64,000 bases of DNA from Convolutriloba macropyga (taxonomy: Eukaryota). Positions 497-30,223 of the stretch are shown piece after piece (the stretch's first letter is position 1; the number at the start of each line of letters is the position of its first letter). The stretch lies in NCBI RefSeq assembly GCF_964194025.1, contig NC_134481.1, forward strand, positions 47,988,001 through 48,052,000, written 5' to 3'. The notes beneath the pieces are model-generated. The model saw only the letters and a list, made by a program, of their open reading frames with translations. It searched no databases and was not told where the DNA came from. A program made the position numbers and the translations under genes.

Positions 497-885
497 ATAA
501 CCGACTAACGACGGGCGAATGGCTTTCAAACGAATGACGAGCGGTTGGCTTCGTCAGAAGCTGCAGTCTAAAGAGGCTTGCTTTAGTTTAACTGAAGGGC
601 GCGTGGGGTGATCCTGGGGGAGGCGAGGGGAGCGCGCGGTTGGGGTCAATCATATAAGAACTGCCCTTTAAGCTACGAAGTTTCGGCGAATCGCACAATT
701 AGAGACCAGTAAGCCGTAAGGCTCGAAGCGAACTTGATGCCTCCGCGCGCTAACACTTGATCGCGTTTTTGAAAAGCATCAGATGAGAAAAAGATCAAGC
801 GAAAAATCGCTAAAGACCACAGGACTATAATTTCTAATAACTTTGTTTGAGAGCAATAAGAAAGTTTACCAAAAAGTCGATTTAT
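497..885. repeat. Dispersed repeat family beginning ATAACCGACTA (copy A1; A2 at 3016-3404)
   Basis: Homologous to 7946-8390 (shared gagcggttggcttcgtcag, tgaaggg..gccctt stem, caagcgaaaaa, ttgagagcaa). Short copies at 447 and 7496. Confidence 0.75.
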
Positions 886-1334
886 TCGAAATTCGAAATA
901 TATGAGAAATGATTGCGACTCAATTTTGGGAGAAAACAAAATCTAATCAGAAAATAAATTAATGATTCAGAACTAAACAACGCTGAGCTCTGTTGCTAGC
1001 TCAATACTCATTCTTTGGATTTCAGTTAATGAAATACTTTGCGCATATTCAGTGTTAATATTGCAGTAAACCTACACCTAGTAGCGCGTCTAACTGAGTT
1101 CTTCAGCTGCAAGAATTTGAAAGCACATTGCTGTAATAGCTGCAAAAGAATAGACTTGCGTGCCGTATAATAGACACAGAAACATAAAATTGAAAAAGTT
1201 ATCGACGCCGACGAAATTAAAAAAGTTATCGACGCCGCCCAAAGAGCTATGTTGAAAAATATTCAGCGATCAATTAAAAAAGCTTGTTAAAATTCCTTGC
1301 GCGGAAGCCTTTCCATTAGGAACCTTTAGTACAC

Positions 1335-1369
1335 AGTTTAAAGTCAGGAACTCATCCTGACTTTAAACT
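1335..1369. repeat. Perfect 15-bp inverted repeat hairpin (duplicated at 3863-3897)
   Basis: agtttaaagtcagga-actca-tcctgactttaaact. Confidence 0.9.
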
Positions 1370-4300
1370 AATTCAAATTTCGAAGTGTAAAAGTCAAATT
1401 CATTGAGTCACGTATGATCAAAATCTGATCACGCAACTGAGCTGAAAACGATGGTTAAAAGTGTGAGAAATGACGTCAAGCGCAAATTCCGTAAGTGAGA
1501 GGCAGAAGTCATGCAGAATTTTTTTCTTCAGCTTTGCTGTGTGAACAAATATAAAACCAAAAAGAGCGTCAAACGACGAAACAAAAAACATTGCCGGAAG
1601 ACTTCCAGAAGCGACTCGAAGCGTCGGAGCCTCAAAGAAAACCGTAATTTCAACTGAATTGCCTTTTGTCTTAAATCATTAACTCGTTACCTCACCAGAT
1701 TTGATTTAAGATGGAACCTACATCACTGTTACCACGAGAACTACTTCAGCTTTGGAGTTATTGAAGCAAGTTAAAATATAAACAATTACAATATCATTCA
1801 GTAAATATATAGAAGGCAAAAAATACAACATAAAAATTTTGACAGAAAAACTCAATGAAATCATGATGCCGCAAAACTTTGTAACTGAACAGATTTGGTA
1901 ATTTTGGAAAAATAGACTAAATTCTTAGGATAGTCCAATAATGCTCAAAAAACTGCTCGGAAATTTTTTTTCCATGATCAAGATTCTGATCTAGAAAAGA
2001 AAGAACTCGGAAATCAACTGTATTACACAAAGACATTACAAACGCATACGGCAGATAAAATTCTCAGAACCAAAACCCAATTTTTCATAATACAAAAATT
2101 TAGACCTCCAAATACCACTACTTTTATCGGTTTAGAGTCACAGCAATTAAGACAAAAATAGGATAAATTTCAGTCTTTCACTTTTTCTGAAGATATATAA
2201 GGAATTATACAATTGCAAAACTTAAAGCATAGACTGCAAATTGCCGAAAAAAGCCGCCACTGACCCGCTTGGCGCACATTGACTGAAACAGAAAATTAAG
2301 AGATGAAATTGAAGAAACTCCCGAAGTGTCAAAGTTCTTAATTGGTGTATATTCTGCATATTGGATTAGATTCTACTATTACACTTAATTCAGCTTCTCA
2401 ACTGAAGGCTATTAAGGATAATACTAATGCCAGCTCGCAACCGGTTTAATAAATTTTGATAACCTTATGCACTATGACATAGTGACCGGTCTTTATCGGT
2501 TTCTCCCGTTCCGTTTGCTCTTTTAAACTTGACCATACTCACTACATTACGTAATTCAATACATAAAAGAATTAAAAATTCATTCAGTTGAAACAATGAG
2601 TGAAGTAAGTCCGAAGTTAAGCGCGAAAATCATGACTTATGTAAAACGAAAAACGTGATCAAAAGGTGAAGCGAATTAAAAAAAGGAGAGCGCCTAAATC
2701 CAAACAGAAAAAAGAAAAACTGGACAAAAACTCCCAAAATCAGATTAACATGTGTACATTGTAAAACTAAAAGAACGAACGAAAAAGACCCGAAAATGAA
2801 ACTGACGAAAAAATTGTGAAGTATGTGCCCATTTGAAACGCATTAGCAAGCTCCCAAAAACACCGTGGTAGGAATTGGCGATGGTCACATTTCAAACCAG
2901 GTATCGAATAAAAAATTTTATCAAACTAAATTAAAAGTAGGGCCGATAGGACAAAAAACTGCCTAAAAACGGTTATCTATATGCACCATTCTGTCAAAAT
3001 GAAGCAATCGTAAACATAACCGACTAACGACGGGCGAATGGCTTTCAAACGAATGACGAGCGGTTGGCTTCGTCAGAAGCTGCAGTCTAAAGAGGCTTGC
3101 TTTAGTTTAATTGAAGGGCGCGTGGGGTGATCCTGGGGGAGGCGAGGGGAGCGCGCGGTTGGGGTCAATCATATAAGAACTGCCCTTTAAGCTACGAAGT
3201 TTCGGCGAATCGCACAATTAGAGACCAGTAAGCCGTAAGGCTCGAAGCGAACTTGATGCCTCCGCGCGCTAACACTTGATCGCGTTTTTGAAAAGCATCA
3301 GATGAGAAAAAGATCAAGCGAAAAATCGCTAAAGACCACAGGACTATAATTTCTAATAACTTTGTTTGAGAGCAATAAGAAAGTTTACCAAAAAGTCGAT
3401 TTATTCGAAATTCGAAATATATGAGAAATGATTGCGACTCAATTTTGGGAGAAAACAAAATCTAATCAGAAAATAACTTAATGATTCAGAACTAAACAAC
3501 GCTGAGCTCTGTTGCTAGCTCAATACTCATTCTTTGGATTTCAGTTAATGAAATACTTTGCGCATATTCAGTGTTAATATTGCAGTAAACTTACACCTAG
3601 TAGCGCGTCTAACTGAGTTCTTCAGCTGCAAGAATTTGAAAGCATAGCCAGCACATTGCTGTAATAGCTGCAAAAGAATAGACTTGCGTGCCGTATAATA
3701 GACACAGAAACATAAAATTGAAAAAGTTATCGACGCCGACGAAATTAAAAAAGTTATCGACGCCGCCCAAAGAGCTATGTTGAAAAATATTCAGCGATCA
3801 ATTAAAAAAGCTTGTTAAAATTCCTTGCGCGGAAGCCTTTCCATTAGGAACCTTTAGTACACAGTTTAAAGTCAGGAACTCATCCTGACTTTAAACTAAT
3901 TCAAATTTCGAAGTGTAAAAGTCAAATTCATTGAGTCACGTATGATCAAAATCTGATCACGCAACTGAGCTGAAAACGATGGTTAAAAGTGTGAGAAATG
4001 ACGTCAAGCGCAAATTCCGTAAGTGAGAGGCAGAAGTCATGCAGAATTTTTTTTCTTCAGCTTTGCTGTGTGAACAAATATAAAACCAAAAAGAGCGTCA
4101 AACGACGAAACAAAAAACATTGCCGGAAGACTTCCAGAAGCGACTCGAAGCGTCGGAGCCTCAAAGAAAACCGTAATTTCAACTGAATTGCCTTTTGTCT
4201 TAAATCATTAACTCGTTACCTCACCAGATTTGATTTAAGATGGAACCTACATCACTGTTACCACGAGAACTACTTCAGCTTTGGAGTTATTGAAGCAAGT

Positions 4301-6020
4301 TAAAATATAAACAATTACAATATCATTCAGTAAATATATAGAAGGCAAAAAATACACAACATAAAAATTTTGACAGAAAAACTCAATGAAATCATGATGC
4401 CGCAAAACTTTGTAACTGAACAGATTTGGTAATTTTGGAAAAATAGACTAAATTCTTAGGATAGTCCAATAATGCTCAAAAAACTGCTCGGAAATTTTTT
4501 TTCCATGATCAAGATTCTGATCTAGAAAAGAAAGAACTCGGAAATCAACTGTATTACACAAAGACATTACAAACGCATACGGCAGATAAAATTCTCAGAA
4601 CCAAAACCCAATTTTTCATAATACAAAAATTTAGACCTCCAAATACCACTACTTTTATCGGTTTAGAGTCACAGCAATTAAGACAAAAATAGGATAAATT
4701 TCGGTCTTTCACTTTTTCTGAAGATATATAAGGAATTATACAATTGCAAAACTTAAAGCATAGACTGCAAATTGCCGAAAAAAGCCGCCACTGACCCGCT
4801 TGGCGCACATTGACTGAAACAGAAAATTAAGAGATGAAATTGAAGAAACTCCCGAAGTGTCAAAGTTCTTAATTGGTGTATATTCTTCATATTGGATTAG
4901 ATTCTACTATTACACTTAATTCAGCTTCTCAACTGAAGGCTATTAAGGATAATACTAATGCCAGCTCGCAACCGGTTTAATAAATTTTGATAACCTTATG
5001 CACTATGACATAGTGACCGGTCTTTATCGGTTTCTCCCGTTCCGTTTGCTCTTTTAAACTTGACCATACTCACTACATTACGTAATTCAATACATAAAAG
5101 AATAAAAAATTCATTCAGTTGAAACAATGAGTGAAGTAAGTCCGAAGTTAAGCGCGAAAATCATGACTTATGTAAAACGAAAAACGTGATCAAAAGGTGA
5201 AGCGAATTAAAAAAAGGAGAGCGCCTAAATCCAAACAGAAAAAAGAAAAACTGGACAAAAACTCCCAAAATCAGATTAACATGTGTACATTGTAAAACTA
5301 AAAGAACGAACGAAAAAGACCCGAAAATGAAACTGACGAAAAAATTGTGAAGTATGTGCCCATTTGAAACGCATTAGCAAGCTCCCAAAAACACCGTGGT
5401 AGGAATTGGCGATGGTCACATTTCAAACCAGGTATCGAATAAAAAATTTTATCAAACTAAATTAAAAGTAGGGCCGATAGGACAAAAAACTGCCTAAAAA
5501 CGGTTATCTATATGCACCATTCTGTCAAAAACAATTTTCAAAGTCGAAAAGTCATCACTGTGCGCAGCGCATGATCAAAAATCTTCTCTCGCTCCTCGCT
5601 AACACAATATTAGTTCACACGACAAGTTTACACACTTTCGCTTTTAGGTCAAAACGCCGTCTGAACGAATAGTACCTCCGGTAAAAAAACCTAAAGAAAA
5701 CCAACAATCCTCTTTGAGTGGTAAAAAAAACCAAGAGCATCGCAATATAGCTCCGCACAGTTTACAGCTATTAAAAACATGAAAATTAGCGCCTCTATTG
5801 TCGATTAAAAATGAATACAACGGATTGAAACAATGCCAACTTTCGGATTAATACATAACGAATCAATTGTCGATTGGTCCATAAGTTTTATAAGAAGGAT
5901 TGTATGGACTAGTACAAAAATGTCATGTAGCTGGCAAATTACACAGCCCATTGCCGTCCGTAAAATCTATGCGGTTTTCTATGCCAGTAAGATTCAAAGC
6001 GATAACTTAGTGGAACTGAC

Positions 6021-10399: not shown

Positions 10400-12179
10400 T
10401 AACAAGGCAACTTAATGGAAGTCAAACAATGACCTCGTACCAAACTACACTATCAAAAAGACATGGGTAAATCAAATCCACAATATCTGATCCCCGACAG
10501 ATGGACACTCTCGAAGTTATAAATCTTTTTTTGCAAAACAACAACCACAGAAGAGCACAGCAGCATCAGCGTATTACTCCTGGTGAATAATTCACCCAAA
10601 TATTAGTTGGAATCAAATGATGTTCAGCGACGAACATGAAAAAGCAATTCTTGAGCTTCAATCGAAATCAACTCAAATTCAAAACATTGTTGTATTCGTC
10701 AGCAGTCCGGATCCATCGATCCTACCAACTGATGAAAGCTTAACAATCACACAGTATTAACACAGAAAAACAAACCTGTTTCTCATCACAAACCTATTGT
10801 AGCGCGACCTATAGCTCGAAAAGCTGCGCATTCCGAGAACCGCTCCTCAGAAAACAAAATGGAAAACGTTGAATAAGGCCATCTTTAAAAATCTTCTCAA
10901 GACTTATTACTTCTGTAATTTCACGTCCTTGTAAAAATCTGCTATACTTGGCTCGGTAAACACCTCCATGGCCACATTCAAAAGAGCACACCATGGATCT
11001 CTTGATCTACTACATATCTTATTACAAAACCGGCAATTGAAAACCATCAGCCAAATTCCAACCTTCCCAGAGAAAGGATCCAGTAACTTCCTAAATGGTT
11101 TAAATCTGGACAAAAGCGCCCTGAAATAATTGTAGACGAAACTGACAGCCAAAGCTAACTTACTCCGTTGCGGTTTTAAGAGCGTTTTGACATTGAGAAT
11201 TTACGTCAAAATTGAATCGATAAACAAAGTCCAGCAAGATAGAAGATAGCGAAGGTAAAGTTTCAAACGCACTCAAAGTCTACAATTATAGTCCCGGCAT
11301 TATTGTTAAAACTATTTTGAAGTACTGCTCGGAAGTACATAGCTTAACTTTCAAATCATTGTAAAAAGGTTACTTTCCTCTGCACTGGAAGGTAAGTCAA
11401 GTTTCTCGAATCTTCAAATATGAAAAAAAAATGATGTTTGCTGTTACGGTCCAACTTCACTGTATTGTACTTTTGAGAATATTTCTGATCAATTACAGAA
11501 ATCTAGTCACGATAAATTACAAAAATCACCATATGTTTACAAAGCGCAGATCAACAGTTAGCCAGCTTCTAGTGTTTCTAGATTCGATTTATCATTAAAA
11601 CGACGACTAGCGAACTAACCGTTTGTATATCAATTTCGCAAAGGCCTTCGATAATACATAACTCGTTACAGATAGAAACTTGAAAGTCGGAGGAAAGCTA
11701 CTGCTCCCAACATCCTACTTAGAAAATTGGCGACAGCTGGCATAAATCTGATAACGAGTTCTCAAAATTGAAGCACGTGGCATATGATTTTCCTCACGTA
11801 CCAATACTTGGTACCCCTCATTTGCAATCTTTATGATTTGCCCACCTCATATCCTATCCTTCAATTAAAATTATGGTTTTGCTGATTATAAGCTACTAGC
11901 AACAATCAACCATTAACTTCAATTGGCAGCCACAGAACTTAAATGGTGAAACGACAACTGCGTGTAGGCAAACACGTCGTGTGAATTGCTCAATATTAAA
12001 AGGAACATCTCGGCAAGTCGAAATTCCTTATTACCTACAAACATGCAAAAGGAACTAGGCTTAAAGATCTCTCACCTGCTTTAAAGTGGAATGACAACCT
12101 TAGACTTAAAGGCAACTGAAGTTTTTCTTGTTAAAATGAAATATATCGCCAAAGGCAGCTCGGGTTCCAATACGAGCTA
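10400..12179 (+). pseudogene. Decayed non-LTR retrotransposon (CR1/L2-like) reverse transcriptase, truncated by the LTR insertion at 12180
   Basis: Broken-frame motifs: LYINFAKAFDN (~11625; D-F-x-K-A-F-D motif), ILG-P remnant (~11805), GFAD (~11876), KELGLKIS...KWND (~12050). Confidence 0.65.
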
Positions 12180-15100
12180 TGTAACAAATAATAATGCAGA
12201 CTTGAGAGCAAAAATCTAAGGGTTCCCCACACCCTCAGTTTTAGGAGTTACCAGTCTTAAGAGAAAATTAGTTTTGGCAATTAATACATTCACAATCGAT
12301 TCTCCAGGTACATGTCATTCACGTAGTAGTTTCTGTGAAAATCCAAGTACAGATCCAAAAGAAGAGATCCTGTGGTCCTCTTCAATATGAACTTCATTTT
12401 TGAAATAATCATAAAATACGTTTGCCAGGTTACAAGTTCGCATCCAAAAATCAGACTCGAATTTCTTTAGACAACAATTGGAGAAATGTTCACCAGCATG
12501 GCTCTCAAGTTAGACTAATACCTCTAATACGCAAAATTAAGACCGCGTACAGTTCCGTTGTCGACGTTACGAGAACTATGGCAAAAGGCTAAACAAAAAA
12601 CAATAGTAGTAGTAATAAAATCTTCGGGCTTTTTCCCGTGGGGTATCAATCCCCGTGTTCATCAGTCCATTTCAATTTATCTTTTTCCAGTTGTTACATG
12701 TTCCATATTTGCGCACTATTCGCCAGGTGCACCTGTTCAGTTGATTGAAATTGTGTGAAGTATTCCCAGTAAATGTTGGTGATTGTTTGCTTATTGAGTA
12801 CTTCGCCGTAGTTTCTGTATACGCGGGAGACAATTTTATAAAAGAAGCTTTGTTTGATGGAAGAAGTTTTCATCCGCTTTTGCATGCCTATTAAGACGTG
12901 TTCTACGGCTTACCTTCTTTAGGGTACTGCTGGAACTGTCTTATGGTTGTCTCAAGAATAATAGTTAATCTTAAGGCTTACCTGACTAACTAAAGTTCTA
13001 TTCCTCTAGTCTGTTACTCTTCTATCTGAGCTTCAGTAGACGGTGCACGGGCCCCAATGCTACGGTCTAACGTTTATCTCAATACAAAACAAGAGCGGAG
13101 TAGAGAGAGAGAAATATACTTTATTATTATATCAGGATGGTAACTGGTACTGACTAAATAACTTTCTCTTCTGCTGAGAGAGGGTAGATGGGTAAACACA
13201 TAGAGGGAAAGAAGGATAAAATAATATATTATTTTTATCCAATCAGAAAAGAGTATTTCAGTCTTTCTGAATAAAGTCTTTCAAAATATTAAATATTCCT
13301 TTTTGGAAGTCATATCTGACTCCATCTTTCCGGGGTTTAGAGTTGTTTTGAAAGTCTTCCAATAGAATATAGTAGAATATTGTTTATTAATTTCTCTGTA
13401 ATCTCTCTGAAGGATTTTCTTTCTTTTTGGTTGTGTTGCTTGAAGACCGGCTTGTCTGTGAGTCGAATCCGAAACATCGGTTACCCAAAGAGCAAAGAGT
13501 GAACATCAACAACCACAAAAGTATCTATTCCACCACCACACTATCCAGTGGACGGAGATCCTTCTGGGTAGGCCCGTCGTTGATGTTGTAGGTGTCCTGA
13601 TGTCCGGCGTCGACTTACCTGGTTTGCTTGGTTTTGTTAGCTGTTAGGTGTTAAGAATCGTTTTTAGATTCACTACATGTTCTAATACGTAGTATCCCTT
13701 CCGGTTGGAAAGAAAATCGAAAGAAGTATGTTATGTTTTGTTGTTTTAATTGTTAGAGAGTGACATAAAGGAGAGTATGTCAACGAAATGGCGAATAACG
13801 TGTTTGGTTTTAGTGACATGGGATTCGTCGGCCATGCTGATTGGTAATGTTGTTATAGCAATTGAACATGTATTAATTAATGCTCCTGCTTGAAATCATG
13901 AGTTACTGAATGGTATTAGTTCTTACAATTGTTTTGTCATACTTCACTGAGGAAACATTTTCCGTATCTGTAAGATTTGAAAATGCTGCTTAGCGCTTTG
14001 TTATATTTTTACATCTACCTGCCAGTCTCTTATGAATTTGTTTAAAGGCTTATAGATCTCGCTTATAGTAGTTTGTAATGGGTATGCCCACAGATGACAA
14101 GTTCTTAGTCCCAATCAACAGTTATTTATTTAATTACATAAATTAAATTAACGTCTCTGTCTGCGCGCTTATAAGTCAAAATCAGTGTACCCAAAGGTCT
14201 GAGTACTACCCATTATGTGAGTTGTTACGATATAAAAGATTATTTTGTTAGCTGTTACTATAATCAACATAGTTTGGTGTTTACATGTGTTGCATGTAGT
14301 CCGTTCATGATGTCTTAATATTGCATGTGAAAATTTCGATTTGAAGGAAAATTCTGTTCTTTTTTGTTTTTAATCTGACTGTTTCGTATATGTTACTCTA
14401 TGTTAAATTTATAGTTTGTCATAAACAATAAATTTGTAATGTACCTTGGGTATGGTAGACTGTAAATTATCCCAAAGAATTCATTATGTTATGATCTGTT
14501 TTATGAGATATTCTCATGTCCTATAGTATTGTGTTACTCAGTGTTGATAACATGGCTTATGAGTCATTTATTAAAATGTTATACACAGTATGCATGTGCA
14601 ATAGTTTATTTGTTCTGTTTTTATTTGTTCTGATTTTATTTTATTTGCCTATTTGCTTTATTTACAAAATTGCATGTGTGTTGCATATAACTAACTATGG
14701 GAAAATCTTTGCATATTTACATATACAGTATTATAAAGTAGGTTGAGTTTGTATCTAAAAAAAAATAAAAACTTGTTTTTGGCTTTAAACTTTTTATTTC
14801 AAAACTGATGAACATTGAGTATCAGAAATGGGTATGAGGAATAACATATGAATAACATATGATAGGTATGTTCCATAATCAGGGGGTAAGATTCAGAATC
14901 ATGAGTTTACAAATTGGAAGAATTTGTTTGAAATGATAAAGATAAAGAGTTACAAACATATGCAAAGATTACAAACATGGTTTGGCGATGTTACAGTTTG
15001 TTCGTTAATTACGAAGACATTGAATTGTTACTTGTTACACTGGACGTTACTATAGCTTCTGCGTTTGTTTCGGGTGATTACTCCTTTCACAGTAGTGATT

Positions 15101-15278
15101 ATATTCTTTCAAGAAGTATTCGTCCTTTGAGAGATAATATCCAAGTAAGTTGACGATTTCCTTTAAGGGGGTTTCTGTTATTGATGCTTGTAAGGCATTG
15201 CAAATTTCTCTTTCTGTGTCTTGAATTTTTCGTTCGTTATTAAAGTTTAGGCGGTTTGTAATTGCCTTATTAGTTACA
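12180..15278 (-). repeat. Candidate 3' LTR, ~3.1 kb
   Basis: Ends form an 11/12 inverted repeat: minus-strand start TGTAACTAATAA (15278) and end TTATTTGTTACA (12180). Preceded by a short purine tract CAGGGAG (15285-15279). Left boundary cuts a LINE fossil. The second LTR is not in the window. Confidence 0.65.
13120..13246 (-). promoter_or_regulatory. Putative LTR promoter / R region (CCAAT box, AT palindrome, Inr, polyA signal)
   Basis: ccaatcag 13239-13246; near-perfect palindrome ggataaaataatatattatttttatcc 13214-13240; Inr-like TCAGT 13153-13149; AATAAA 13125-13120 followed by a CT/GT-rich tract. Confidence 0.5.
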
Positions 15279-16693
15279 CTCCCTGTGAGGTGATATACAT
15301 GGTACTCCTCACAAGGTTCGATCGCTTCCAGAGGTATCATGAGCGGTCGCTCTGGTGCGTCCTTTGGCTGGAAGACGTAGTAGTTTTTAATTGGATCAAA
15401 GTTTCTCAATGTTCCAATAGTGTACTCCCATTTTAATTTGTAGCTATAATTGAGGAAGTATGGTGATGTCAGTTGGTCATTGATATGAACGTAGCTTTTA
15501 GATTCTGAATTTTGTTTGTCTCTAAGGAATGTATAATATATCAGATTGTGAATTAATTTCGTCTCGTGAACTCTATAATTGTTGCTTTGAACGTCCTTTG
15601 GTGTAGGGTGGAGGAAGTTAAAACTCAGTTGGAAAATCTGGTGTTGCTGTGTAAAGGCGCTGTATGCGGATAGATCTTGAGAGGCTTTTGCCACTAAAAG
15701 ATCAAAGTTACAGTTTACTGGTAATCGAAATTCATAGTCGTAGTCGTACAGGAAACGTTCTGTGAGACTGTAGAATTGTTTTAGCTTAGGGTATTGAGAC
15801 TGGTGTATCTTGTCTCTACCCATATTTTTTGTGCTTCTTTTTACGGTATTTGTGTTTTCCGACGGGAGTGGCGGAAAAAATTCTGACACACGATCTTTCA
15901 GCGTGTGTAAAGGTGCCATAAAGAAGTTATAGGATCGAGAATCGAATGGCATATCTGCCCAATTTCGGTACGAGAGGAGTGGGTTGTAGTTCATTCCGTG
16001 AGGGTTACTAAGATTTTTTGGATCCTTGTTTTGGAACCAAATCGTTTCCATGACCGTCTCGGTCGGGGTCTGTTCGTTCGTTGATTGATGAAAGAACGAT
16101 TTTCTGTTATTAGAGCGGGGTGTCACCGCATATGGAAATCTTAAATTGTTAGTGGTAGGCATTGTTGTTCTTGCGAATAAACGTTGTCTAACATTGTTCT
16201 GTGTTTGTGGTTGATCAATTACGTAGTTGTCTGATGGTGGGGGTGGACGTACTGGCGGGGGGTAATTCGGTAGGGGTGGTGACATATATGTGTCACTACT
16301 GTTATAATTATAATTTTGTCGTGGTCTTGTGTTTTGATAGCTATGTGTAGCTATATTTGTTCCTTGTTCCGATATATTGTTAATATTATTGTTACCAGTA
16401 TCAAAAGATTGCAGATTTCGTCGATTACCAAATCTGTTTTGTATCTTTCGGGCTATGTCTTGTGGTGTCTGCACAATGTGTGTTTCGTTTTCCAGTTCGA
16501 CTCTGAGTGTTTTGATATTCTCGTCATTTGTGATCATATTTGTTTCAGTTTGAGTCCCACAGTCAGATGCACAGTCCCGAATAGTCCCGGGGCTGGATCT
16601 GCCTGACTCACAACTCAACTCTCCTTCTTCCACTTCGTAGGAAAATGGCGAGTCGGATTTGTATGGCGAGTCGTACTCCATGTTAGATGCCAT
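15050..16693 (-). CDS. Intact 547-aa accessory protein of unknown function, downstream of env
   Basis: Long uninterrupted ORF in AT-rich DNA. Disordered Pro/Ser/Asn-rich N-terminal half and aromatic-rich, globular-looking C-terminal half. Branch point TACTAAT (16725-16719) plus ttttag acceptor 9 nt upstream of the ATG. Confidence 0.85.
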   Translation of the reverse strand: MASNMEYDSPYKSDSPFSYEVEEGELSCESGRSSPGTIRDCASDCGTQTETNMITNDENIKTLRVELENETHIVQTPQDIARKIQNRFGNRRNLQSFDTGNNNINNISEQGTNIATHSYQNTRPRQNYNYNSSDTYMSPPLPNYPPPVRPPPPSDNYVIDQPQTQNNVRQRLFARTTMPTTNNLRFPYAVTPRSNNRKSFFHQSTNEQTPTETVMETIWFQNKDPKNLSNPHGMNYNPLLSYRNWADMPFDSRSYNFFMAPLHTLKDRVSEFFPPLPSENTNTVKRSTKNMGRDKIHQSQYPKLKQFYSLTERFLYDYDYEFRLPVNCNFDLLVAKASQDLSAYSAFTQQHQIFQLSFNFLHPTPKDVQSNNYRVHETKLIHNLIYYTFLRDKQNSESKSYVHINDQLTSPYFLNYSYKLKWEYTIGTLRNFDPIKNYYVFQPKDAPERPLMIPLEAIEPCEEYHVYHLTGSVTNKAITNRLNFNNERKIQDTEREICNALQASITETPLKEIVNLLGYYLSKDEYFLKEYNHYCERSNHPKQTQKL

Positions 16694-17018: not shown

Positions 17019-20000
17019 TTAGATTTCGTATGTATCAGCCGAATGGGTATCATAATATGTGACTTCATTCGTATGTGGCTGATCATTTTTAAGAATATCT
17101 AGGCTGTAGCTACGATTCTGCATTTTGTTATTTGCTAGTTTTAATTGGTTGAAATCTATTGGTGGCGGGTTCTGAATTTCTAAAAGTCTGGGAGTTGGTA
17201 TTAGTTTATGTTGATTATGTTGATTATTTGATGGTTGAGGAATTTCATATTGTGTCTGTTGTGTTATAGGTGATTCGTATGAATAGGGTTTAATCTGTAT
17301 GTGCGATTGTTCTATATTAGGTGCGCTTGGAGTTGGTATTGGGATTGATACAGGTGGGAGACTACTCAAGCGTTGGTACGCTGGAGGCGGTGTTATAAGT
17401 TGTGGTGGTATTGGTGGTAGTGGTTGGGTTTTGTTTTCATTTATTGTTGTTAATGTTTCCATTTTGAATTGTTCTGTTTTGTGTTTTCTTTCTGGTAGTG
17501 GTGGTGCTTGTTTCTTTGTTGGTGATTCTAATGTACGTAATTGTAGACCATGTTCTGTCCTACGTATAGTAGTGTTATAGTGTTTGTAGTTCGTATCTAC
17601 ATAATGTTCTGTTGGTTTATCTCTACGCGTTAATGTTGGTATTTCTGTTGAATGTCGTCTGAAATGTTGAATATGTATTCGTGAAGTATTATGTCCTTTA
17701 TTGTAATGTGAATTGTTATCATCATTACTATTATCATTATTATTGTCGTAATCATCTTCTTGTATTTGTGCAACTAGTTGGGTTAGTGTTTGTGAGAATA
17801 TTCCGAATATTCCTGTTAGGAGTATTTTTGTTATGCTTGCTTGTTTCCCAATCGCTTTGTGTATTGCAAAAGCGTTGTAAAATTTTATGATTAGGTTTGT
17901 TACAAATAATATCATGCTCATCATCGCATAGATGATAGCCATCTTTTCAAGTATGTACCATGGCCAACCAAAGATAGATAATATCTGATCTTTCAGCCAT
18001 GCTGCATCGAAAATTTCTTTCCAGTTTACACTTGGTTGATCAATCTGGAAGTTATATCCGTTTATATTTAAGTCCTTTAACCATTTAAGTGAATGTTCAT
18101 AATTTTTGTATGTTTGTAGTAATCCTAATTGTTCTAATTCTAGTAGTTTTTGTGCGTTAGCAGATTGTGCTTCTTGAAGCGGTTTTTCGCGGTCTCTCAT
18201 ATATTCGTGTAGTAAATCTCTTTTTCGTTCCTGTATTAATTGTTCCTTGCTGAAGATTCCACTTTCAATGAGGCTTGCTTTGCTGAACATGTTATCAAGT
18301 ACTATTTCTTCTGGTGATATTGTTTCTAATATTGTTTCTACTTTTATTGGATATGGTGTCAATCTGTATCTTACTGTTCCTTCTGTGTCTATTGAAATTA
18401 GTTGATCGAAATTACTATGTGAACATGGAACCGTTTTCGCCCAAAGGTAAGTTTGTCGTGTTAGTTGGTGTACATATTGTACTCTATTTTTGTATAGTAT
18501 TGGTATCTTGTCGTAACATTCACGTGTTTGTGGTACGTATAGTGGTGAAGATTTCTTTGCACATTTGTACATTTTCATCACATTAACTCCTTCTTGTTTC
18601 ACAAATATGGATCTATCTCCTGTAAGGATGTATCCTAATAGTGGTGTATTCTTTTGTACTTGTGTTAGAGCCAACTGTCGAATATTGCGAGTTTGTTCGC
18701 ATATCTGTGAATAGAATTCTATTGCCTGAAGACTAATGCGTGAATATATATTACTCATATAGAGGTCCATTTTCATTTGTAGATGTGTGTTCTCGTTTAC
18801 AAAACGATAATAATAATTTTGATGTTCCTCGTCTTCATATCTTGTGTATGCATTTGACATAATTTGTTGTGGTTTGATTTTTATAAATTTTTCTTCTTCA
18901 AATTTGTCTTCTTTTCTTGTTACTTTAAGTCCTGTATGCATGTCAAAACCATATTCGTATATTATATAAATATCATCGTATTCTGTTTTATGAAGTGGTT
19001 GTGGTGATCCTTATTCTCGTTCAACCAATGGGTAGATTTCAAATCTTGTTGCTATTGATGATGTATCATTATATTTTACTTTTTGATGTACATCTGGTTT
19101 TTGTACTGATGACCATTCCGCGTTTGTTTCTATCCAATACCGTTCCTGATACTTAACCATATATGCATCAAACCTAATAAGTTCAAATAGTTGGCAATGT
19201 GTTTGAGGTTCCCAAATGATTGTTGCTTTTGTAAATGGTGTTGGTAAACATTCTCCCTTGTGGAGATCACATGGTAGTTTTGTTCCCATATATGATATGT
19301 CTTTTGTATCAAGATTTAGTATTAACGAGACTTCTTTTATCTCTAGAGTCCAGTCTAAAATATCAATTCTATTTTGTTTTTTGACGCCTGATAGGCAGTT
19401 TGATTGTGCATTTTTGATTTCATTCGGTACCCACATTGGATTTGTATAATCATATACCAATCTTCCATATGGTGGTACCATTGGAGTGTCTATTCTGAAT
19501 TTTATATTTCCTTGTACGTTTTCTAGTCTCTTTTGTAATGGTGGGTTTGATAAGTAATTGAACGATATGTTATGCCTTGTTGGCTTGTATTTTGTATTTT
19601 TAAGAACGTTAATTCTGGCGAGTTCGTTACGAACTTCGTCTGGGTCTAGGATTTTCGTTCTTCGTGCATCTGATACGTAATAGCTTGGTCTGTTTGCTCT
19701 AATGTAATGAGTGTGTTGTGAACACCATTCTACTTTTTCTTTGATTGTTCCTGTAACAGCATATGCTTTAATTTCTACAGCTTGTGCTTTTGATAGTAAT
19801 TGGACTTCTGTTTTAGTCATTTCTAAGTCTAATGGTTTAAATTTACATGTGCTGATTTTGTTCAGTTCGTAGTATTTTACGTTTGTTATTTCTTCTGCAT
19901 CGCAGTCGTAGTGTTCGATAAAAATGTCTTGAGGTCCGACTGCTGATCCATTAATATTTTGTCCTTTCAATTCAACGTAATCTTCTTGTGTCTGTCGTTT

Positions 20001-20451
20001 ATTTCTTTTATTATTTAGTTGGAATTTTTCCAAAATACTGTCTGTTAATTGTTCTGTAGAAATTCCAATTTCGTGTCCATTTATCTATGGCTATTTCCCA
20101 CATTTGTTCGTAATCTGTACTATTCGTTAATTCCTTTAAGTCTGGTGAAGTGTACTTCGATGGTAATTTATATATTTCCATATCAAATGTTGTTGTATTA
20201 TCTAATACATGATCTATTAACGTTTTAAAATTATCTTGATCAGTTCCATTTATGTTATTTGTGTTTATTTTGTTTTTCTTTTGTAAGCGTTCCATATGTT
20301 TTTCCATACGCTCTTGTACATGTTCTTGAATTTGTTCTCTAATATTTTGTTTTGTTTTATATTTTGATCTTATTTCAGTGTCTATTTTCATATAGATAAA
20401 TAATGTTATTAGTAATAATATTAGTATGAGAGATTTTAATTGAAGCGGCAT
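17019..20451 (-). pseudogene. env: Envelope glycoprotein (chuvirus G-like), ~1143 aa, disrupted by one frameshift (~20085-20035) and one in-frame TAA (19013-19011)
   Basis: Joins ORFs 20011-20451, 19011-20033 and 17019-18941. N-terminal hydrophobic LILILLLITLFI; furin site KRNKR (~19995-20009); Cys/aromatic pattern IEHYDC..C..VQLL..WCSQHTH, CDLHKGEC..IIWEPQTHC, FYSQICEQ..KMYKC..ECYDKIPILYKN..VPCS; C-terminal TM WPWYILEKMAIIYAMMSMILFVTNLII. Confidence 0.85.
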
Positions 20452-21890
20452 GTGTATGATAGTCCGGTGTGTGGATTATAGAATGTTGCAAATCCTAAAG
20501 TTTGTTTTGTGTATCGATCGAATTTGTAGATGAAATCAATGCAAACAAATGGTGCTGGTATCGTTGTTGTTACAGTAGATGGTGTTGTCGCGTGGAAAGG
20601 ATGGTTGTATATGGTGTCGTATTTTATTGTAGTATTGAATTTTAGTTCTAGTGATGGTGTTGCTAGAACTTCAAGTGCTGAGTTTCGTTGGCGATGTGTT
20701 AAGTTTAAGGTATTTGTAAGTCTATTTCTTGACCAATTTGTGAGAGTATCTCCAAGATTAGTTGGTCCGTATAGTGGTGGAGGTGGATTCCAGGTTTTAT
20801 GATCTAATGGGAAAAGATATGTATGATCATTAGTTCTACTTAAAGTAGGTGGATTTGGGTTGAGTACGGGTGTTGCTCTAGTTCTTCCAGGGTGTGTAGA
20901 TGATAATCTTATTTCTGGTATAAATGAAGTAGGTGATAATGCTCTATGTTGCGGTGGTTGTAGAGAATTTGCTATTTCTATTCGTGGTACGCTAATAGAT
21001 GTATTTGTCAATGAGGATGTTCTTGGTGTTCTTTGTGGTGTTGAACTTGTACTTGCTGATTGTTGTGGTGATGTTGCTGACCAAAGTGAGCTATTTGGTG
21101 ATTGTATTGGTTGTACACGGAAGTGTTCTTGTACAAAATTGAAATCTTGTCTTTGTTGTGTTGTTGGCGGTAAAAATGGGTTAGCTCTAAGTTCTGATGA
21201 TGTGGGTGTTGGTATAGTATGCACACTTGATTGGCTTGGTGACGCGATACTAAAGTTTGATAGTGTTGGTGTACCTATTCGAGTTGGTGTTTCTGTTCGT
21301 TCTGCTTCTAAAGGTCTTATTATGTTTGATTCTATATCCGTTGATCCGTATGATACTAATGTAGAGTCTTGTGTAGGAAAAGATAATGATGCTCTACGTC
21401 TACCTCTTAAAAGGTGTCGTGTATCTGTTCTTGCTCGTCTTACTGTATATGGGTTTTCGTTTTCGGGGTTTGTTTCTTCTATTTCTGGCGATGTGGGTAT
21501 ATTTGTTAAGTCTGTTACTTCGTTATGATGAGGTCTTTCTGGGTGATTGTTACTATTGTTATTATTATTTGATGAAGCAATTTTTGCTGTTTTTAAATAA
21601 TTTCAGGCTCCAGAGCCTGGTCCAGGTGGTGGATGTGGTATGAACGGTGGGGCTAGTATAACTACTGGTATTAATTCTTGTTCTGGTTGGTGTGTTTGAG
21701 CTCCTAGGTTTGTAATCCAAATTTCATTGGTTGTGAGTCTAATATTGAGTTGATATATCACAATGTTACCATGTAATGGGGATGTGTCGGGGAATCCAAT
21801 TTGGAGGTAGAACTTTTGTGTATGTAGTGTATGATATATCGATTCTTCAATGTCTGGGTTGGTATCAATTTTTATGGATTTATAAAGTAT
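20436..21890 (-). pseudogene. ~485-codon Ser/Thr/Pro-rich accessory ORF with one internal TGA (21605-21603); overlaps the env start
   Basis: The frame of ORF 20436-21224 stays open upstream to 21890 apart from a single TGA (GSGA*NYLK). No ATG is present at its start. Confidence 0.65.
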
Positions 21891-22439: not shown

Positions 22440-22913
22440 TTAAGACGTGCTTTTATCGTCTATGAGGGTTATAGCGTCCTTTTTACACACAACTATAAAA
22501 ACTGTTTTTAGTTTGTTAAGGTCAATACATTGGTCTGTTTGAATCTGTTGTTTCAGTAAGTTATACTCTGTGATTGTTTCGTTACAAACGGTTATTTGTT
22601 TTAGTAATTCAAAATGTTTTTCTCCCCAGAATAGTTTTACTTCGTGTCCGCTTTCTGTTTTTCCTTCAATAATAAATAAACAATCTTTATCCGAGAATTG
22701 ACAAAGTGTTGTTCGTATACTATCGTTATCAAAATGAATGTGATTACCAAAAGTGTAATCTATATTTGCAAAATCTTCTCTTTGGACTTGTATTTTTATA
22801 CAAAACTGTTTCGTATTCAAAGATTTGAAAAATTCTGACACTTTTATCATTGGTGGTTCTTCATCACTGTGGTGACTGTAGTGATGAATTAGTCTTTGGT
22901 AGAAGAAGTTCAA
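22440..22913 (-). CDS. Putative 157-aa accessory protein of unknown function
   Basis: Co-oriented ORF with globular protein-like composition; the annotated start is TTG, with an internal Met in PPMIKV. Confidence 0.55.
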   Translation of the reverse strand: MNFFYQRLIHHYSHHSDEEPPMIKVSEFFKSLNTKQFCIKIQVQREDFANIDYTFGNHIHFDNDSIRTTLCQFSDKDCLFIIEGKTESGHEVKLFWGEKHFELLKQITVCNETITEYNLLKQQIQTDQCIDLNKLKTVFIVVCKKDAITLIDDKSTS

Positions 22914-25983: not shown

Positions 25984-28104
25984 CTAATAAAGTTGGGGAA
26001 TTGTTATTTTCTTCTTTCGAAGATTGTAATTATGAGATTGTGTGATCCCATCAGGTGGTGTATATTGTTTTGTTGGTGTTTGTGTATTGGGTTGTTTTAG
26101 CGTTGGGATTTCTTTCGTTAATAAATAATTTTGTAATTCTAATTTAATATGTTTTTCTTTCGGAAAGTATGGTACAATATGATTTCTATGTAGTGTAATG
26201 TGTTTATTAGTGTTGTCCTTCAGTATGTAGGTTGTTTCTGTAGGCTTATCAATAATTAAATATGGTCCCGTTTTTAGAGGTATTAATTTCTTTGATACTC
26301 CGTCAATCTGTTGTTGATTTGTGATCAAGACGAATGTGTTTTTATCAAGTGGTTTCGCCGTTCTGAACCGTGAATTTAATTCATCAGTTAACTTTTTTCT
26401 ATTTCTTAATATCGTTGTTATTGTTTGATATGTATCATTATAATGTTTTTCTTTATCAAGAAACCATTTTGCGAATGTTCCGTTTTGTAGTTTTGCTATT
26501 TTGGGGTGACTGAATTGTTTATCTAAGTGAGTATGAGTGGGTTGTGTATTGCATGCGCTTGTTCTTGTTGGGTTACAGTTTCCCATCTCGTCTGTAGTTG
26601 TTCCAAGTTTAATCTTTGTTGGTTTTCTAGGTTTTTGATTGAAAACTACTTCATAAGGTGACATGCCTAATCTTGTCTGGTATTGGGTATTATATGCATA
26701 CGGAAAGAATTTTGCTTTTCTAGACCAATTTTGGTACTTTTCGTTGAGTAATGTCCTTATAAATTGTCCAATTATTCTATTAGTTCCTTCTACTAATCCG
26801 TTTGTCCAAGGTGCATATGTTGTGCTTGGTTTAAATTTGATTTCGAAATAATTACAAAGATGTGTTAATTCTGTATTTATATATTCCGATCCGTTATCGG
26901 AACGAATTTCTTCGGGTAGTCCGAATTTCATAAACCAATGTTCAAATAATGCTGTAACTGCGTAGTGTGCATTGTTCTGAGGCGCACACATTATTGTTAC
27001 GTAATGCGAGAATGCATCTACTATCACAAAAATAAAATTGTTTCCTTCAGATGTAGGATGTATTGGACCTTTTGTGTCTATCATAATCATTTCATTAAAG
27101 TATGTTTTTGTAGGTGCTAATTGTTCTTGTTTACTTTTCGTTTTTGTGTTAGCGAAAACTTTGTTTGTTTGACATTGTATGCAGTCTGCGATCAGTATCT
27201 TGATCCAAGTTGTTAAGTTTGGGAAATAATATTTTTCCATTATGTTTCTTTTTGTTTTTTCAAGTCCCGTGTGACCAACTGTATCTACGCAATGGTTTTC
27301 GTAGAAAACACATAGTAGTAATGTTAGTGGCAAACAGATTCTTTGTATTGTTTGTTTCTTTATTCGGATAATCATTTTCATTATGTTTGTTTTTTCGTCA
27401 ATAGTAATTGACTTAAACTTTCTGTAATATGCGAATAGACCTTTATTTCCACGTATGTCCATTGTTACTGAATGTGGTTTATTGTTATTTTTCTTCCACA
27501 TTTTGACTTTATGAAGTACTGGGTCTATTATTTGTGTTTCCTTAATCAATTCTTCTGTTACTTTTGTTTTTTCATCATAGAAAATATCTGTTATTTTTGC
27601 ATGTTCGAAATTATGTTCTTGTTTCACATTGTTGATTAATCTAAGATAATCATCGTCGTGATGGGTTATGTATGGTCCTTTTTGGTTTTTCTCTATGATT
27701 AAGTCATCTTTTTCAATGATTGGTGATTGCCAGTTTTTTGTTTTTGGTTTGTATTTCGGTACTAAATTTGTTTTTGTTTCAGTATTATATTTTTCATATG
27801 ATATCGGATGGTATTCGTTTTTATCAATATTAATTTCAAAGTAGTTGTTATGTATATTGGCTAGAACTGGATAATGTGTTGTGTCTTTGTTATCGTTGTT
27901 TGTATTGTTACAAATACTGTATTTACATTCTAGATTATTTGCAAATGGTGATTTCGCAAAGAAGAATTTTATGTTTTCAGGTATTTCCACTGTAATATCA
28001 CGTGTTTTTGTAAAATGTTCTTCATCTATTGTTCTACTTAGTAGGTCTGGTAAAGCTAAGTTTTTTCCTTCAGTCCATATGATATGTAAGTTAGGAAATT
28101 TCAT
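25984..28104 (-). CDS. pol: Gypsy pol, 3' part: end of RNase H, long spacer, integrase (HHCC, DDE core, GPY/F)
   Basis: GKNLALPDLLSR (RH end); H..GHTG..CIQC; MIDTKGP, IVDAFSHY, IRSDNGSEY, NGLVEGTNR; KTGPYLI..LHRNHIVPY; terminal YNLR. Confidence 0.95.
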   Translation of the reverse strand: MKFPNLHIIWTEGKNLALPDLLSRTIDEEHFTKTRDITVEIPENIKFFFAKSPFANNLECKYSICNNTNNDNKDTTHYPVLANIHNNYFEINIDKNEYHPISYEKYNTETKTNLVPKYKPKTKNWQSPIIEKDDLIIEKNQKGPYITHHDDDYLRLINNVKQEHNFEHAKITDIFYDEKTKVTEELIKETQIIDPVLHKVKMWKKNNNKPHSVTMDIRGNKGLFAYYRKFKSITIDEKTNIMKMIIRIKKQTIQRICLPLTLLLCVFYENHCVDTVGHTGLEKTKRNIMEKYYFPNLTTWIKILIADCIQCQTNKVFANTKTKSKQEQLAPTKTYFNEMIMIDTKGPIHPTSEGNNFIFVIVDAFSHYVTIMCAPQNNAHYAVTALFEHWFMKFGLPEEIRSDNGSEYINTELTHLCNYFEIKFKPSTTYAPWTNGLVEGTNRIIGQFIRTLLNEKYQNWSRKAKFFPYAYNTQYQTRLGMSPYEVVFNQKPRKPTKIKLGTTTDEMGNCNPTRTSACNTQPTHTHLDKQFSHPKIAKLQNGTFAKWFLDKEKHYNDTYQTITTILRNRKKLTDELNSRFRTAKPLDKNTFVLITNQQQIDGVSKKLIPLKTGPYLIIDKPTETTYILKDNTNKHITLHRNHIVPYFPKEKHIKLELQNYLLTKEIPTLKQPNTQTPTKQYTPPDGITQSHNYNLRKKKITIPQLY

Positions 28105-30020
28105 ATTAGTATCAATTGAAATCTGTAAACTCTATGGTTTGGTTTATTCTTTTGTATAAAGAGGTAAATGATTAGCTTGTGGTCTGTAAATAAAATTATT
28201 GGGTGATTTGAACCTGTTAATAAGAATTCGTATTCTGTGAGTGCGAAAATGATCGCTGAACATTCTCTAATTAGTGTAGATAATCTCATTTCAATCGGTG
28301 TGAAAAGTCTAGAATTTGCTGAAATTAGTCGCATTTTCTTTTCAGTTGGATGTTGTTGCAGTAGTGCTGCTCCAATGCTTGTGTTGGATGCATCTGTTAT
28401 AATGTAAAATGGTTTTGTTGTATCCGGTATTGTTAATTCTAGGTTGTGTGTTATTGTCTTTTTCATTTGTTCAAATATTTTTTGATGTTCTTTAGTCCAT
28501 TTGAAATCATTTTCTTTGTGTAGTAGATTGTATAATGGTTGTAATATTGGTTGCATTCCGTATACGTATTTGGCTAAAAAATTTATTGTTCCTAGGTATC
28601 GTTGTAAAGCTTTCATACTTGTTGGAGGTTCCAGTTTTTGGAATCCATCAATTCGTGATGTAAGTGGTTTTACTTTTTTGTCTTCGATGATATGACCTAA
28701 AAATTTTACTTTCTTTAACATGAAGTATGTTTTATCAGGTGCTGCTTTTAAGTTCTCTTTAAGCAGTACTTTGTGATATTCAATCAATGTCTCGAACATT
28801 TGTTCGTAAGAGTTTGTTTGAATAAAAATATCATCCACATAGGTGATGACTGTTCCTTTTCTAATTAAAGGGTAAAGGAAATGTGTTAAAATTGAAGCGA
28901 ATGCTGCTGGTCCGATTGATATTCCGTAAAATAATCTTTTGAAACAATATTGTTCGTTTCCAATTGTGAAATGTGTATATCGCATTGATTCTTCATCTAA
29001 TGGTATTTGGTTATATGCGCTATTAAGGTCTGCAGTTGTGAATATTGTTCCGTTTATTCTTGTTAAAGCTACATCAACTGGTTCAATTGGCCAGTTACAC
29101 TTTGATTCATCTATCATGCTGTTCAAATATCTTGCATCTATTACAATCTTTAAAGATTCTCCTTTTCGTAGTATTATTACCGGGTTTGTGAATGTGTTTC
29201 CTGTTGATAGTTGTTCTTTATTCACGGGTGCGATTATGTCATATTTTTTAAGAACATCTAACAGTTTTTGTATCCGTTCTCGAAGATGTATAGGTACTTT
29301 ACTTATTCTTTGTTTTTTGAATATTGCATCTTTTTTCATTGGTAAATTCAATTTTACTTTCGTTTTTCCTACGTCAAATTTTGTTGTTGCGTAGACTTGT
29401 TTATAGTCTAATATGATTTTTACTACTTTTTCAAATTCTTCTTGTGTTAAGTGTGAGTGTTGAAAATCAAACATTGTTATGAATTCTTTCTCTTGTTCTG
29501 AATATTTGTTAATGTTAAACTTGCATTTGAAGTTTGGTTTTCTTTCAAATGTTGCAACTTGTTCAATAGTTTCGTTTTCTTTGATGTTTAATATTTCTTC
29601 AATATCGTTTTCATTTTCGTATGTCAGATGGTACAGTGCTTGGAATAAGTCGATAGAGTTTGTGTAGTATAGTTCGTTATCTTGTTTTTTGAAGTTAATA
29701 TTCCTGTTCATGAAACCAATGAGTCCTGTATTTATTGTTATTCGATGTCTGTTTTTGTTGATCAATAGTATATCCATAAAGTATTCTTCGTCTGAGGAAA
29801 AATCTTTTATATCTGTAAATGATACGTTATGATATTTGTTTATTGGTTCGAAATAGAATTTCGATTTCTGTATTGTTTTATCATTTGAATGTTTCATTTG
29901 TTTAAATATTGGTATTGGAAATGTTATGCTTTTTTGTTGATTTGGTTCTATATAGATTGTTTCTCTATTAATGATTGTGTATAATCGGGAGTAGTAAGGA
30001 TAACCTTTAGTACTATTCAT
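28101..30020 (-). CDS. pol: Gypsy pol, 5' part: reverse transcriptase and RNase H (truncated by gap; frameshifted relative to the integrase ORF)
   Basis: NPVIILRK, IVIDARYLN, TADLNSAYNQI, RLFYGISIGPAAF, YVDD (28841-28830), FLGHII, ITDASN..GAALLQ, RECSAIIFAL, FTDHK. Confidence 0.96.
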   Translation of the reverse strand: MNSTKGYPYYSRLYTIINRETIYIEPNQQKSITFPIPIFKQMKHSNDKTIQKSKFYFEPINKYHNVSFTDIKDFSSDEEYFMDILLINKNRHRITINTGLIGFMNRNINFKKQDNELYYTNSIDLFQALYHLTYENENDIEEILNIKENETIEQVATFERKPNFKCKFNINKYSEQEKEFITMFDFQHSHLTQEEFEKVVKIILDYKQVYATTKFDVGKTKVKLNLPMKKDAIFKKQRISKVPIHLRERIQKLLDVLKKYDIIAPVNKEQLSTGNTFTNPVIILRKGESLKIVIDARYLNSMIDESKCNWPIEPVDVALTRINGTIFTTADLNSAYNQIPLDEESMRYTHFTIGNEQYCFKRLFYGISIGPAAFASILTHFLYPLIRKGTVITYVDDIFIQTNSYEQMFETLIEYHKVLLKENLKAAPDKTYFMLKKVKFLGHIIEDKKVKPLTSRIDGFQKLEPPTSMKALQRYLGTINFLAKYVYGMQPILQPLYNLLHKENDFKWTKEHQKIFEQMKKTITHNLELTIPDTTKPFYIITDASNTSIGAALLQQHPTEKKMRLISANSRLFTPIEMRLSTLIRECSAIIFALTEYEFLLTGSNHPIILFTDHKLIIYLFIQKNKPNHRVYRFQLILI

Positions 30021-30023
30021 GTA

Positions 30024-30223
30024 NNNNNNNNNNNNNNNNNNNNNNNNNNNNNNNNNNNNNNNNNNNNNNNNNNNNNNNNNNNNNNNNNNNNNNNNNNNNN
30101 NNNNNNNNNNNNNNNNNNNNNNNNNNNNNNNNNNNNNNNNNNNNNNNNNNNNNNNNNNNNNNNNNNNNNNNNNNNNNNNNNNNNNNNNNNNNNNNNNNNN
30201 NNNNNNNNNNNNNNNNNNNNNNN
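30024..30223. other. Assembly gap separating the Gypsy pol from unrelated sequence (other gaps at 37213-37570, 53678-53828, 55520-55674)
   Basis: Runs of N. Confidence 1.

Follow-up and report, generated by a model that had tools for sequence, protein, structure and literature searches.

A Predicted Class III Fusogen Encoded by the env Gene of a Large, Multicopy Ty3/Gypsy LTR Element in Convolutriloba macropyga

Results

The env Locus

The window, a 64,000-nucleotide stretch of the Convolutriloba macropyga genome (RefSeq assembly GCF_964194025.1, contig NC_134481.1, positions 47,988,001 to 48,052,000), carries on its minus strand a pol gene, an env gene, several accessory ORFs, and a 3′ LTR (Table 1). 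Three minus-strand ORFs lie at env (20011–20475, 19011–20084, and 17019–19010). In a tblastn search, a natural sister protein matches the window in two frames, 20451–20053 (residues 1–133, 85% identity) and 20054–17022 (residues 134–1144, 97.7% identity), which places a frame change at 20054/20053, inside the interval (20085–20035) where the original prediction had put a frameshift. The in-frame stop proposed at 19013–19011 does lie in the same frame as the downstream ORF, and all eight of the motif groups tested from the proposed motif spacing are present in the window translation, together with the tetrapeptide RNKR (20006–19995).

Table 1. Features of the element in the window, in the order in which they would be read
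Feature	Position	Strand	Basis
pol (RT, RNase H, integrase), in two frames in the window copy, stopping at the N run	25984..30023	-	Pfam RVT_1, RT_RNaseH, Integrase_H2C2, rve
Accessory ORF, 136 aa from Met	22440..22850	-	variable sites 17/8/37 by codon position, 7 copies
95-codon ORF, no ATG, in frame with the 388-codon ORF	21603..21890	-	weak codon bias, 8/3/11
Accessory ORF, 388 codons, no ATG, overlapping the env start	20436..21602	-	variable sites 52/28/116 by codon position, 8 copies
env, piece 1: Met, hydrophobic leader (residues ~1–24), most of the ~130-residue helical pro-region	20053..20451	-	tblastn of sister; sister model helices 3–63, 70–95, 112–143
Frame change, private to the window copy	20053..20054	-	sister alignment; break-spanning word check
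env, piece 2: leader end, furin site, start of class III ectodomain	19014..20054	-	PF24664, 30.8 bits; sister alignment
Furin-type site R-N-K-R, putative cleavage	19995..20006	-	window translation; sister conservation
HYDC motif (ectodomain start)	19913-19902	-	window translation
In-frame stop, private to the window copy	19011..19013	-	ORF list; sister frames; break-spanning word check
env, piece 3: remaining ectodomain (long central helix, crown strands), membrane anchor, tail	17019..19010	-	PF24664, 30.1 bits; model and fold searches
Predicted transmembrane helix, then a second, weakly hydrophobic helix	17877..17957	-	hydropathy; model helices 817–868, 874–899
Cytoplasmic tail, ~250 residues, Pro/Asn/Thr-rich, under purifying selection	17022..17774	-	shared pN/pS 0.08
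Tail motifs PPAY and PSAP	PPAY 17387-17376; PSAP 17330-17319	-	window translation; 16/16 whole-frame sisters
Post-env accessory ORF, 547 aa	15050..16693	-	core shared pN/pS 0.02
3′ LTR, 434 bp, TG...TA	12892..13325	-	blastn to sister LTRs

Both larger window pieces of env pass the Pfam cut-off for Monjiviricetes_fusion (PF24664; 30.1 and 30.8 bits against 27), and a natural sister env scores 46 bits; feature matches in the Atlas (0.94–0.95) fall in the same family as PF24664.

Sister Copies and Selection

A search of the same genome with env piece 3 gave 67 scored copies (95–100% identity), the best 67 of 5,654 candidates. By hand count, with the window included, 49 of these best 67 have a stop-free reading frame of 1,140 codons or more, a share that is biased towards intact copies because the 67 are the best of the 5,654. 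The whole env frame, 1,138–1,150 residues from the same Met, is found at 16 of the 20 sister loci examined, and window words spanning either break are absent from every other locus examined. Since sisters hold the whole frame at the same place and the break-spanning words are found nowhere else, the three window ORFs are one env gene that has been damaged in the window copy, as originally predicted; the sisters do not keep the ORFs apart. Real mutation and sequencing or assembly error cannot be told apart from the data as the source of the two breaks. A programmed frameshift combined with read-through, or three separate genes, would suit the layout of the window copy taken alone, but either is scarcely credible when 49 of the 67 scored copies have one frame and the break-spanning words recur in no other locus examined.

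Selection was estimated from the 16 whole-frame copies (93–99% identical), leaving aside the four of 20 loci without a whole frame. Shared pN/pS falls from 0.32 in the leader to 0.08 in the tail, 0.03 in the ectodomain, and 0 in the membrane region; across the sister copies, env is under strong purifying selection.

The Host Element

Six sister insertions measure 21,260–21,410 bp, giving an element length of about 21 kb. LTR pairs in five copies (433–434 bp, 99.1–100% identical) have TG...TA ends, and four of these five LTR-paired copies are flanked by 4-bp target duplications; for the sixth insertion the best match is a flanking duplication. In four of five copies, 14 nt of the primer site are complementary to the 3′ end of a host tRNA, which ARAGORN assigns to Met(CAT) in three of the four genes found. 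In one sister, gag and pol form a single 2,570-codon frame that matches RT, RNase H, integrase, and, at 30.5 bits against a cut-off of 24.1, Retrotrans_gag. The window copy ends before gag at an N run (30024–30223), and the DNA past this run has no match to the 5′ part of the element family. The order of Pfam domains in pol is RVT_1, RT_RNaseH, RT_RNaseH_2, Integrase_H2C2, and rve, a set that we take to mark Gypsy rather than BEL/Pao elements. On these sequence features env is carried by a recently inserted, multicopy Ty3/Gypsy LTR element, and the Gypsy setting named in the original prediction is supported by this anatomy. Troyka elements were considered and rejected: as described in PMC12440569 they need CG...CG termini and a 3-bp duplication, and the copies here have TG...TA and 4 bp.

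The gap between pol and env is 5.5 kb and carries the 136-codon and 388-codon ORFs; a conserved TGA separates the latter from the 95-codon ORF. Variable sites in the 136- and 388-codon ORFs are biased towards the third codon position, in contrast to those of a non-coding control (55/61/63). The 136-aa ORF has no Pfam match. The 547-aa ORF downstream of env shows a weak profile match (E 0.017) to a module common to the post-env ORFs of related elements, which may be Tudor/SH3-like. Its fold model has a mean pLDDT of 42, its look-up in the Atlas gave no usable match, and a PDB sequence search with the profile of the shared module returned nothing at E up to 10. By their substitution patterns, three accessory ORFs under selection (136, 388, and 547 codons) flank env, and they are among the new features of this element family.

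Fold of the Predicted Env

An AlphaFold2 monomer model of residues 1–900 of a natural sister (74 sequences; mean pLDDT 74, pTM 0.51) combines long strands with a long central helix and a crown rich in strands. The top viral matches in Foldseek are chu-like, Chuviridae, Xinmoviridae, and Qinviridae glycoproteins (E 1.6e-24 to 1.2e-20), with 12–15% identity in the structural alignments and TM-scores of 0.2–0.44. Chu-like G ranks first, xinmo- and qinvirus G fall within the same top nine ranks as chuvirus-type G, and the first herpes gB stands at rank 22 (E 5e-12, against about 1e-24 for chu-like G). The match to Chuviridae, Xinmoviridae, and Qinviridae G (PF24664; BFVD models) extends over nearly the whole ectodomain; these top viral proteins have 620–750 residues, whereas Env has 1,144, with the leader and a long tail added.

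Herpes gB was matched in fold searches of the PDB (E 7e-10; Z 10.3, with an rmsd of 15 Å across 407 residues), with rhabdovirus G below it (Z 6.0–6.9). Herpesvirus gB (9e5v, 6vn1) shares the order of elements over model residues 175–765 at a Z of about 10, but identity is about 10%, rmsd about 15 Å, and there is no sequence-level match; domain movements in the monomer model are the probable cause of the high rmsd. Queried by sequence with the sister protein and with an env profile, the PDB gave nothing at E up to 10. Neither baculovirus F nor a class II fusogen is among the fold matches listed for viral models and the PDB.

Env is accordingly best described as having a predicted class III fold with modest global structural agreement, and the original call of a class III-like fusogen is in keeping with both sets of fold matches to the sister model. 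The core class III motifs are retained in the window family, and its Env has 12 cysteines, compared with mostly 13–21 in full-length relatives. The original prediction had further labeled Env a chuvirus-like (Jingchuvirales) glycoprotein. Chuvirus-type G proteins are indeed its best viral structural matches, but the name Jingchuvirales is too narrow because G proteins of Xinmoviridae (Mononegavirales) and Qinviridae score in the same range. Chuvirus G has itself been modelled as class III in a preprint (bioRxiv 10.64898/2026.08.30.748148).

Origin of env

A full HMMER search with env retrieved 509 proteins, including full-length distant matches at 25–31% local identity. Word-based homologue searches had close relatives alone among the matches listed, the clusters of 20 distant Envs carried no informative names, and the viral contigs searched contained no env relative. 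The same genome encodes further env families matched by PF24664, families B, C, and D among them. Families B and C lie in LTR elements, with pol 31–39% and env 22–26% identical to the window family; no pol was found in the DNA stretches examined for family D. Nine metagenome loci carry a related env: both of those with long upstream DNA have a Gypsy-type pol, and the remaining seven are too short or lack a known gene.

The nearest relatives of env are Gypsy envs (22–24% identity, against 12–15% for viral G). Across five elements with both genes, identities in pol (38–70%) and env (22–46%) rise together (Spearman 0.95; exact Mantel, 1 of 120). Because env tracks pol over these five elements, the sequence comparison is best explained by an env that was present before the compared Gypsy elements split, having been acquired long ago and inherited with pol. 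In an env tree of 29 rows (midpoint root, no viral rows), the branch of the window family is very long (4.2 changes per site) and its placement is weak.

The original prediction had a viral fusogen captured by a Gypsy element; as an event of the element described here this is not supported, with Gypsy envs as the nearest relatives and env identity following pol. Direct capture of a chuvirus G by the element or a near ancestor, of the kind proposed for the mosquito element Anakin, draws on the PF24664 match and on the several places that Chuviridae and chu-like G hold among the first nine in Foldseek, far above herpes gB. We nevertheless consider it unlikely: xinmo- and qinvirus G score alike, closer relatives reside in Gypsy elements (the two long metagenome loci and sister families B and C), env tracks pol, and the ORFs of the element matched no N or L gene family in Pfam. 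Mosquito chuvirus-derived glycoproteins are reported as 29–56% identical by BLAST (PMC7642597) and the env here is 12–15% identical to viral G in structural alignments, measures that are not strictly comparable. A recent chuvirus donor finds no support in these sequence relationships; descent of env and of chu-, xinmo-, and qinvirus G from a common ancestor is the best explanation, with exchange possible in either direction.

The N-Terminal Leader

In the window family 156 residues separate the hydrophobic leader from the first conserved motif, compared with 16–38 in 16 other homologues in which a leader was detected (in 8 of the 25 homologues none was). An R-x-x-R sequence before that motif occurs in one of the 25 homologues, the window family itself. 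R-x-K-R is kept, with x varying, in 16 of 16 whole-frame sisters and also in most relatives of 40–83% identity that reach the site; a Trp-rich helix ahead of it is conserved in the same range of relatives, and the middle of the leader is variable. A cut at R-x-K-R would leave 27 residues before the first motif, as in other homologues. Among these 25 homologues, a leader of about 130 residues with a conserved furin-type end is a new feature confined, as judged from the alignments, to the window family; the original prediction of an added, furin-ended N-terminal extension agrees with this distribution, with cleavage itself putative.

These features suggest a pro-leader that would be removed by furin, and one that perhaps tethers or shields the ectodomain until cleavage. 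The hydrophobic leader may serve as a signal peptide that is cleaved off, not as an anchor. No need for a priming step of this kind is known among class III proteins. In family B and two further homologues (P0111 and L104) the long leader is of another type, with a second hydrophobic segment at its end, consistent with the two-TM form described in the survey of Chary and Hayashi (PMC13524379).

Tail Motifs

The PPAY and PSAP motifs of the Env tail are present in all 16 whole-frame sisters, and both are kept in most relatives of 55–87% identity that reach them. Of 24 env tails, each representing a different lineage, 8 have P[ST]AP (0.14 in shuffles), 4 have PPxY (1.16 in shuffles), and 12 have ΦYPxΦ, a pattern drawn from these same data (0.29 in shuffles). 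As a control, 15 Pro-rich regions of the same elements (2,756 residues) contain no P[ST]AP or ΦYPxΦ and have PPxY in two. The signal is weaker in eight further tails: P[ST]AP in one (p 0.053), PPxY in one (p 0.28), and ΦYPxΦ in two (p 0.0045). The p-values for the tails are overstated because the pattern was seen before testing and the tails are related by descent. Late-type motifs are absent from the first 1,100 residues of the window family's Gag-Pol, and sister-family Gags do carry such words (PTAP in family B, a YPxnL-like word in family C). Across the clade, the sequences of env tails appear enriched in motifs of the ESCRT late-domain type, a new observation.

In retroviral Gag, according to PMC7995964, PT/SAP, PPxY, and YPxnL bind TSG101, NEDD4-type ligases, and ALIX, respectively. 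The same article describes herpes gB tails as directing sorting to multivesicular bodies without driving budding by themselves. An Env that keeps its fold but no longer fuses virions, acting as a trafficking or interference protein with tail motifs that serve only for sorting to endosomes or exosomes, would be in line with these gB tails, with the position of the window family as the most diverged member of the clade, and with its reduced cysteine count. We regard such a protein as improbable, since selection on the ectodomain is stronger than on the leader or tail (pN/pS 0.03), the gene rides in recent full insertions with near-identical LTRs, and the core class III motifs are kept.

Discussion

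The env in the window is a damaged copy of the single env gene of a multicopy, approximately 21-kb Ty3/Gypsy LTR element; it is predicted to encode a class III fusogen of the gB/chuvirus-G type that, in our judgment, probably lets the element's particles enter other cells. The hydrophobic leader would take Env into the secretory path, where host furin could cut at R-x-K-R; the new N-terminus of the ectodomain would then lie approximately where the ectodomains of relatives begin behind their signal sequence. The ectodomain would trimerize and fuse membranes in the manner of herpes gB. The PSAP and PPAY motifs of the tail might bind TSG101 and NEDD4-type ligases, in which case Env, not Gag, would bring ESCRT to the budding site.

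A broader proposal, which we put forward tentatively and hold to be rather less probable than its opposite, is that a widespread, gene-rich Gypsy clade has moved its budding signal from Gag to Env. Tail motifs of the PSAP, PPxY, and YPxL type would recruit ESCRT, so that fusogenic vesicles or virions might be released by the action of the fusogen itself, and in the window family the class III fusogen would also be under the control of furin through its N-terminal pro-leader. A literature search that left most subscription journals outside found no report of late domains in retroelement env tails; searches on Monjiviricetes class III proteins with retrotransposons, and on giant Gypsy elements with accessory genes, likewise found no report of the tail pattern.

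Gypsy elements with a chuvirus-like env have been published before. Chary and Hayashi (eLife 2026; PMC13524379) describe 1,512 env-bearing Ty3/gypsy elements across animals, with HSV/gB as one env type; they report that gypsy POL, too, can have as its neighbor the chuvirus-like glycoprotein found in mosquito BEL/Pao elements (114 elements), argue for ancient co-inheritance of env and pol, and note that conservation of a furin site is not universal. The family described here shares with their HSV/gB-type errantiviruses the gag-pol-env order between LTRs, a tRNA primer site, many similar copies, a gB-like class III ectodomain flanked by a leader and a TM helix, and an env that co-diverges with pol. 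At the family level, pol domains, gag, LTRs with a primer site, and a gB-like ectodomain (in the monomer model) were all found; an uninterrupted multicopy env is seen in 49 of the 67 scored copies and not in the window copy. The differences are the size (~21.3 kb), the 5.5-kb pol-env gap, at least three further coding ORFs, the 130-residue furin-ended leader, and the PSAP and PPAY motifs in a tail of 250 residues. In the main text of PMC13524379 the terms "late domain", "ESCRT", "PPxY", "cytoplasmic", and "accessory" do not occur; its table has no row with the primer sequence of the window family, and its text and table contain no acoel or xenacoelomorph entry.

Anakin (Dezordi et al.; PMC7642597, PMC10084718) comprises BEL/Pao elements with a chuvirus-derived glycoprotein; as described in those articles it is likewise an LTR retroelement with a chuvirus-G-like env, but the element here has Gypsy-type Pfam domains and an env far more distant from sampled chuvirus G. 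The Tor Env of Oikopleura (PMC4402516), also an invertebrate Gypsy env, is likened here by description only: it is reported there as a membrane glycoprotein with furin-sized products, and env can arise from an internal promoter. Tor4b is placed beside F-type elements in PMC13524379.

The likeness to chuviruses is not new; the leader, tail motifs, and accessory genes are. The 5.5-kb spacing between pol and env shows a class of large elements that is missed by a search with a 1-kb limit; the non-insect search of PMC13524379, as set out there, allowed 1 kb between pol and env with limited extensions. That article calls the entry and exit route of gB-type errantiviruses unknown. The tail motifs offer a cheap and testable handle on release, as the leader does on activation, and if Env carries late domains, this element family would have a division of labor unlike that of retroviruses, whose late domains, according to PMC7995964, sit in Gag.

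Env Families and Gene Layout

Three more env families were found in the same genome. Family B (L069-L072 and L077-L078) has 816-bp LTRs and a pol-env gap of several kilobases, family C (L073-L074) has the same primer site as the main family (the ~21-kb Ty3/Gypsy element), and for family D (L076) neither pol nor an LTR pair was found within the stretches taken. The gene for tRNA-Met, the primer tRNA, occurs in large tandem arrays (L109-L112); two contigs hold most of the 96 matches to its pattern. The gene-rich layout of the main family is also present in a distant element (L106), in the order pol, two extra ORFs, env, and a post-env ORF; one of the extra pol-env ORFs has 1,032 codons and lacks an early ATG. 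The window also contains two duplications unrelated to the element, one in tandem (~2.5 kb) and the other of ~1.8 kb with 300-bp inverted arms.

Coding Regions of the Main Family

Between pol and env, two ORFs without an ATG lie in the same frame, separated by a TGA that is kept in 5/5 ungapped copies examined; it is possible that they are joined by splicing or read-through. A frame antisense to the longer ORF is open in several copies and may be a shadow of that ORF's coding strand.

The env tail ends in T-Y-E-I in all 16 of 16 copies. Several more words centred on Tyr are conserved in the tail; these and the terminus resemble SH2 or PDZ ligands. Gag has ~530 residues N-terminal to its capsid-like domain and a long stretch rich in Arg, Ser, and Asn C-terminal to the zinc knuckle.

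Coordinates of the features described
Feature	Location	Source
Post-env ORF	15050-16693 (-)	window, main family
Env tail	17022-17774 (-)	window
388-codon ORF	20436-21602 (-)	window
95-codon ORF	21603-21890 (-)	window
233-codon open frame	20827-21528 (+)	window
Tandem duplication	479-4648	window
Duplication, inverted arms	52887-56768	window
Gag	L035:578-8287	main family
Post-env module	L070:6104-6403	family B
Post-env module	L074:5602-5991	family C
Post-env module	L076:7676-8053	family D
Post-env module, two stretches	L100:10251-10550 and 11577-11861	
Post-env module	L101:2766-3035	
Post-env module	L103:2984-3277	
Post-env module	L106:13533-13838	distant element

The Post-env ORF

In an older, diverged copy (L098), the post-env ORF is tandemly duplicated. 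ORFs located 3' of env in distant elements have in common a module of ~90 residues, which belongs to no known family. A profile built from six sequences recovered two additional modules (E 1e-11 and 9e-10) and weakly matched the post-env ORF of the main family (E 0.017). The ORF containing this module may be a fourth gene, conserved across the clade.
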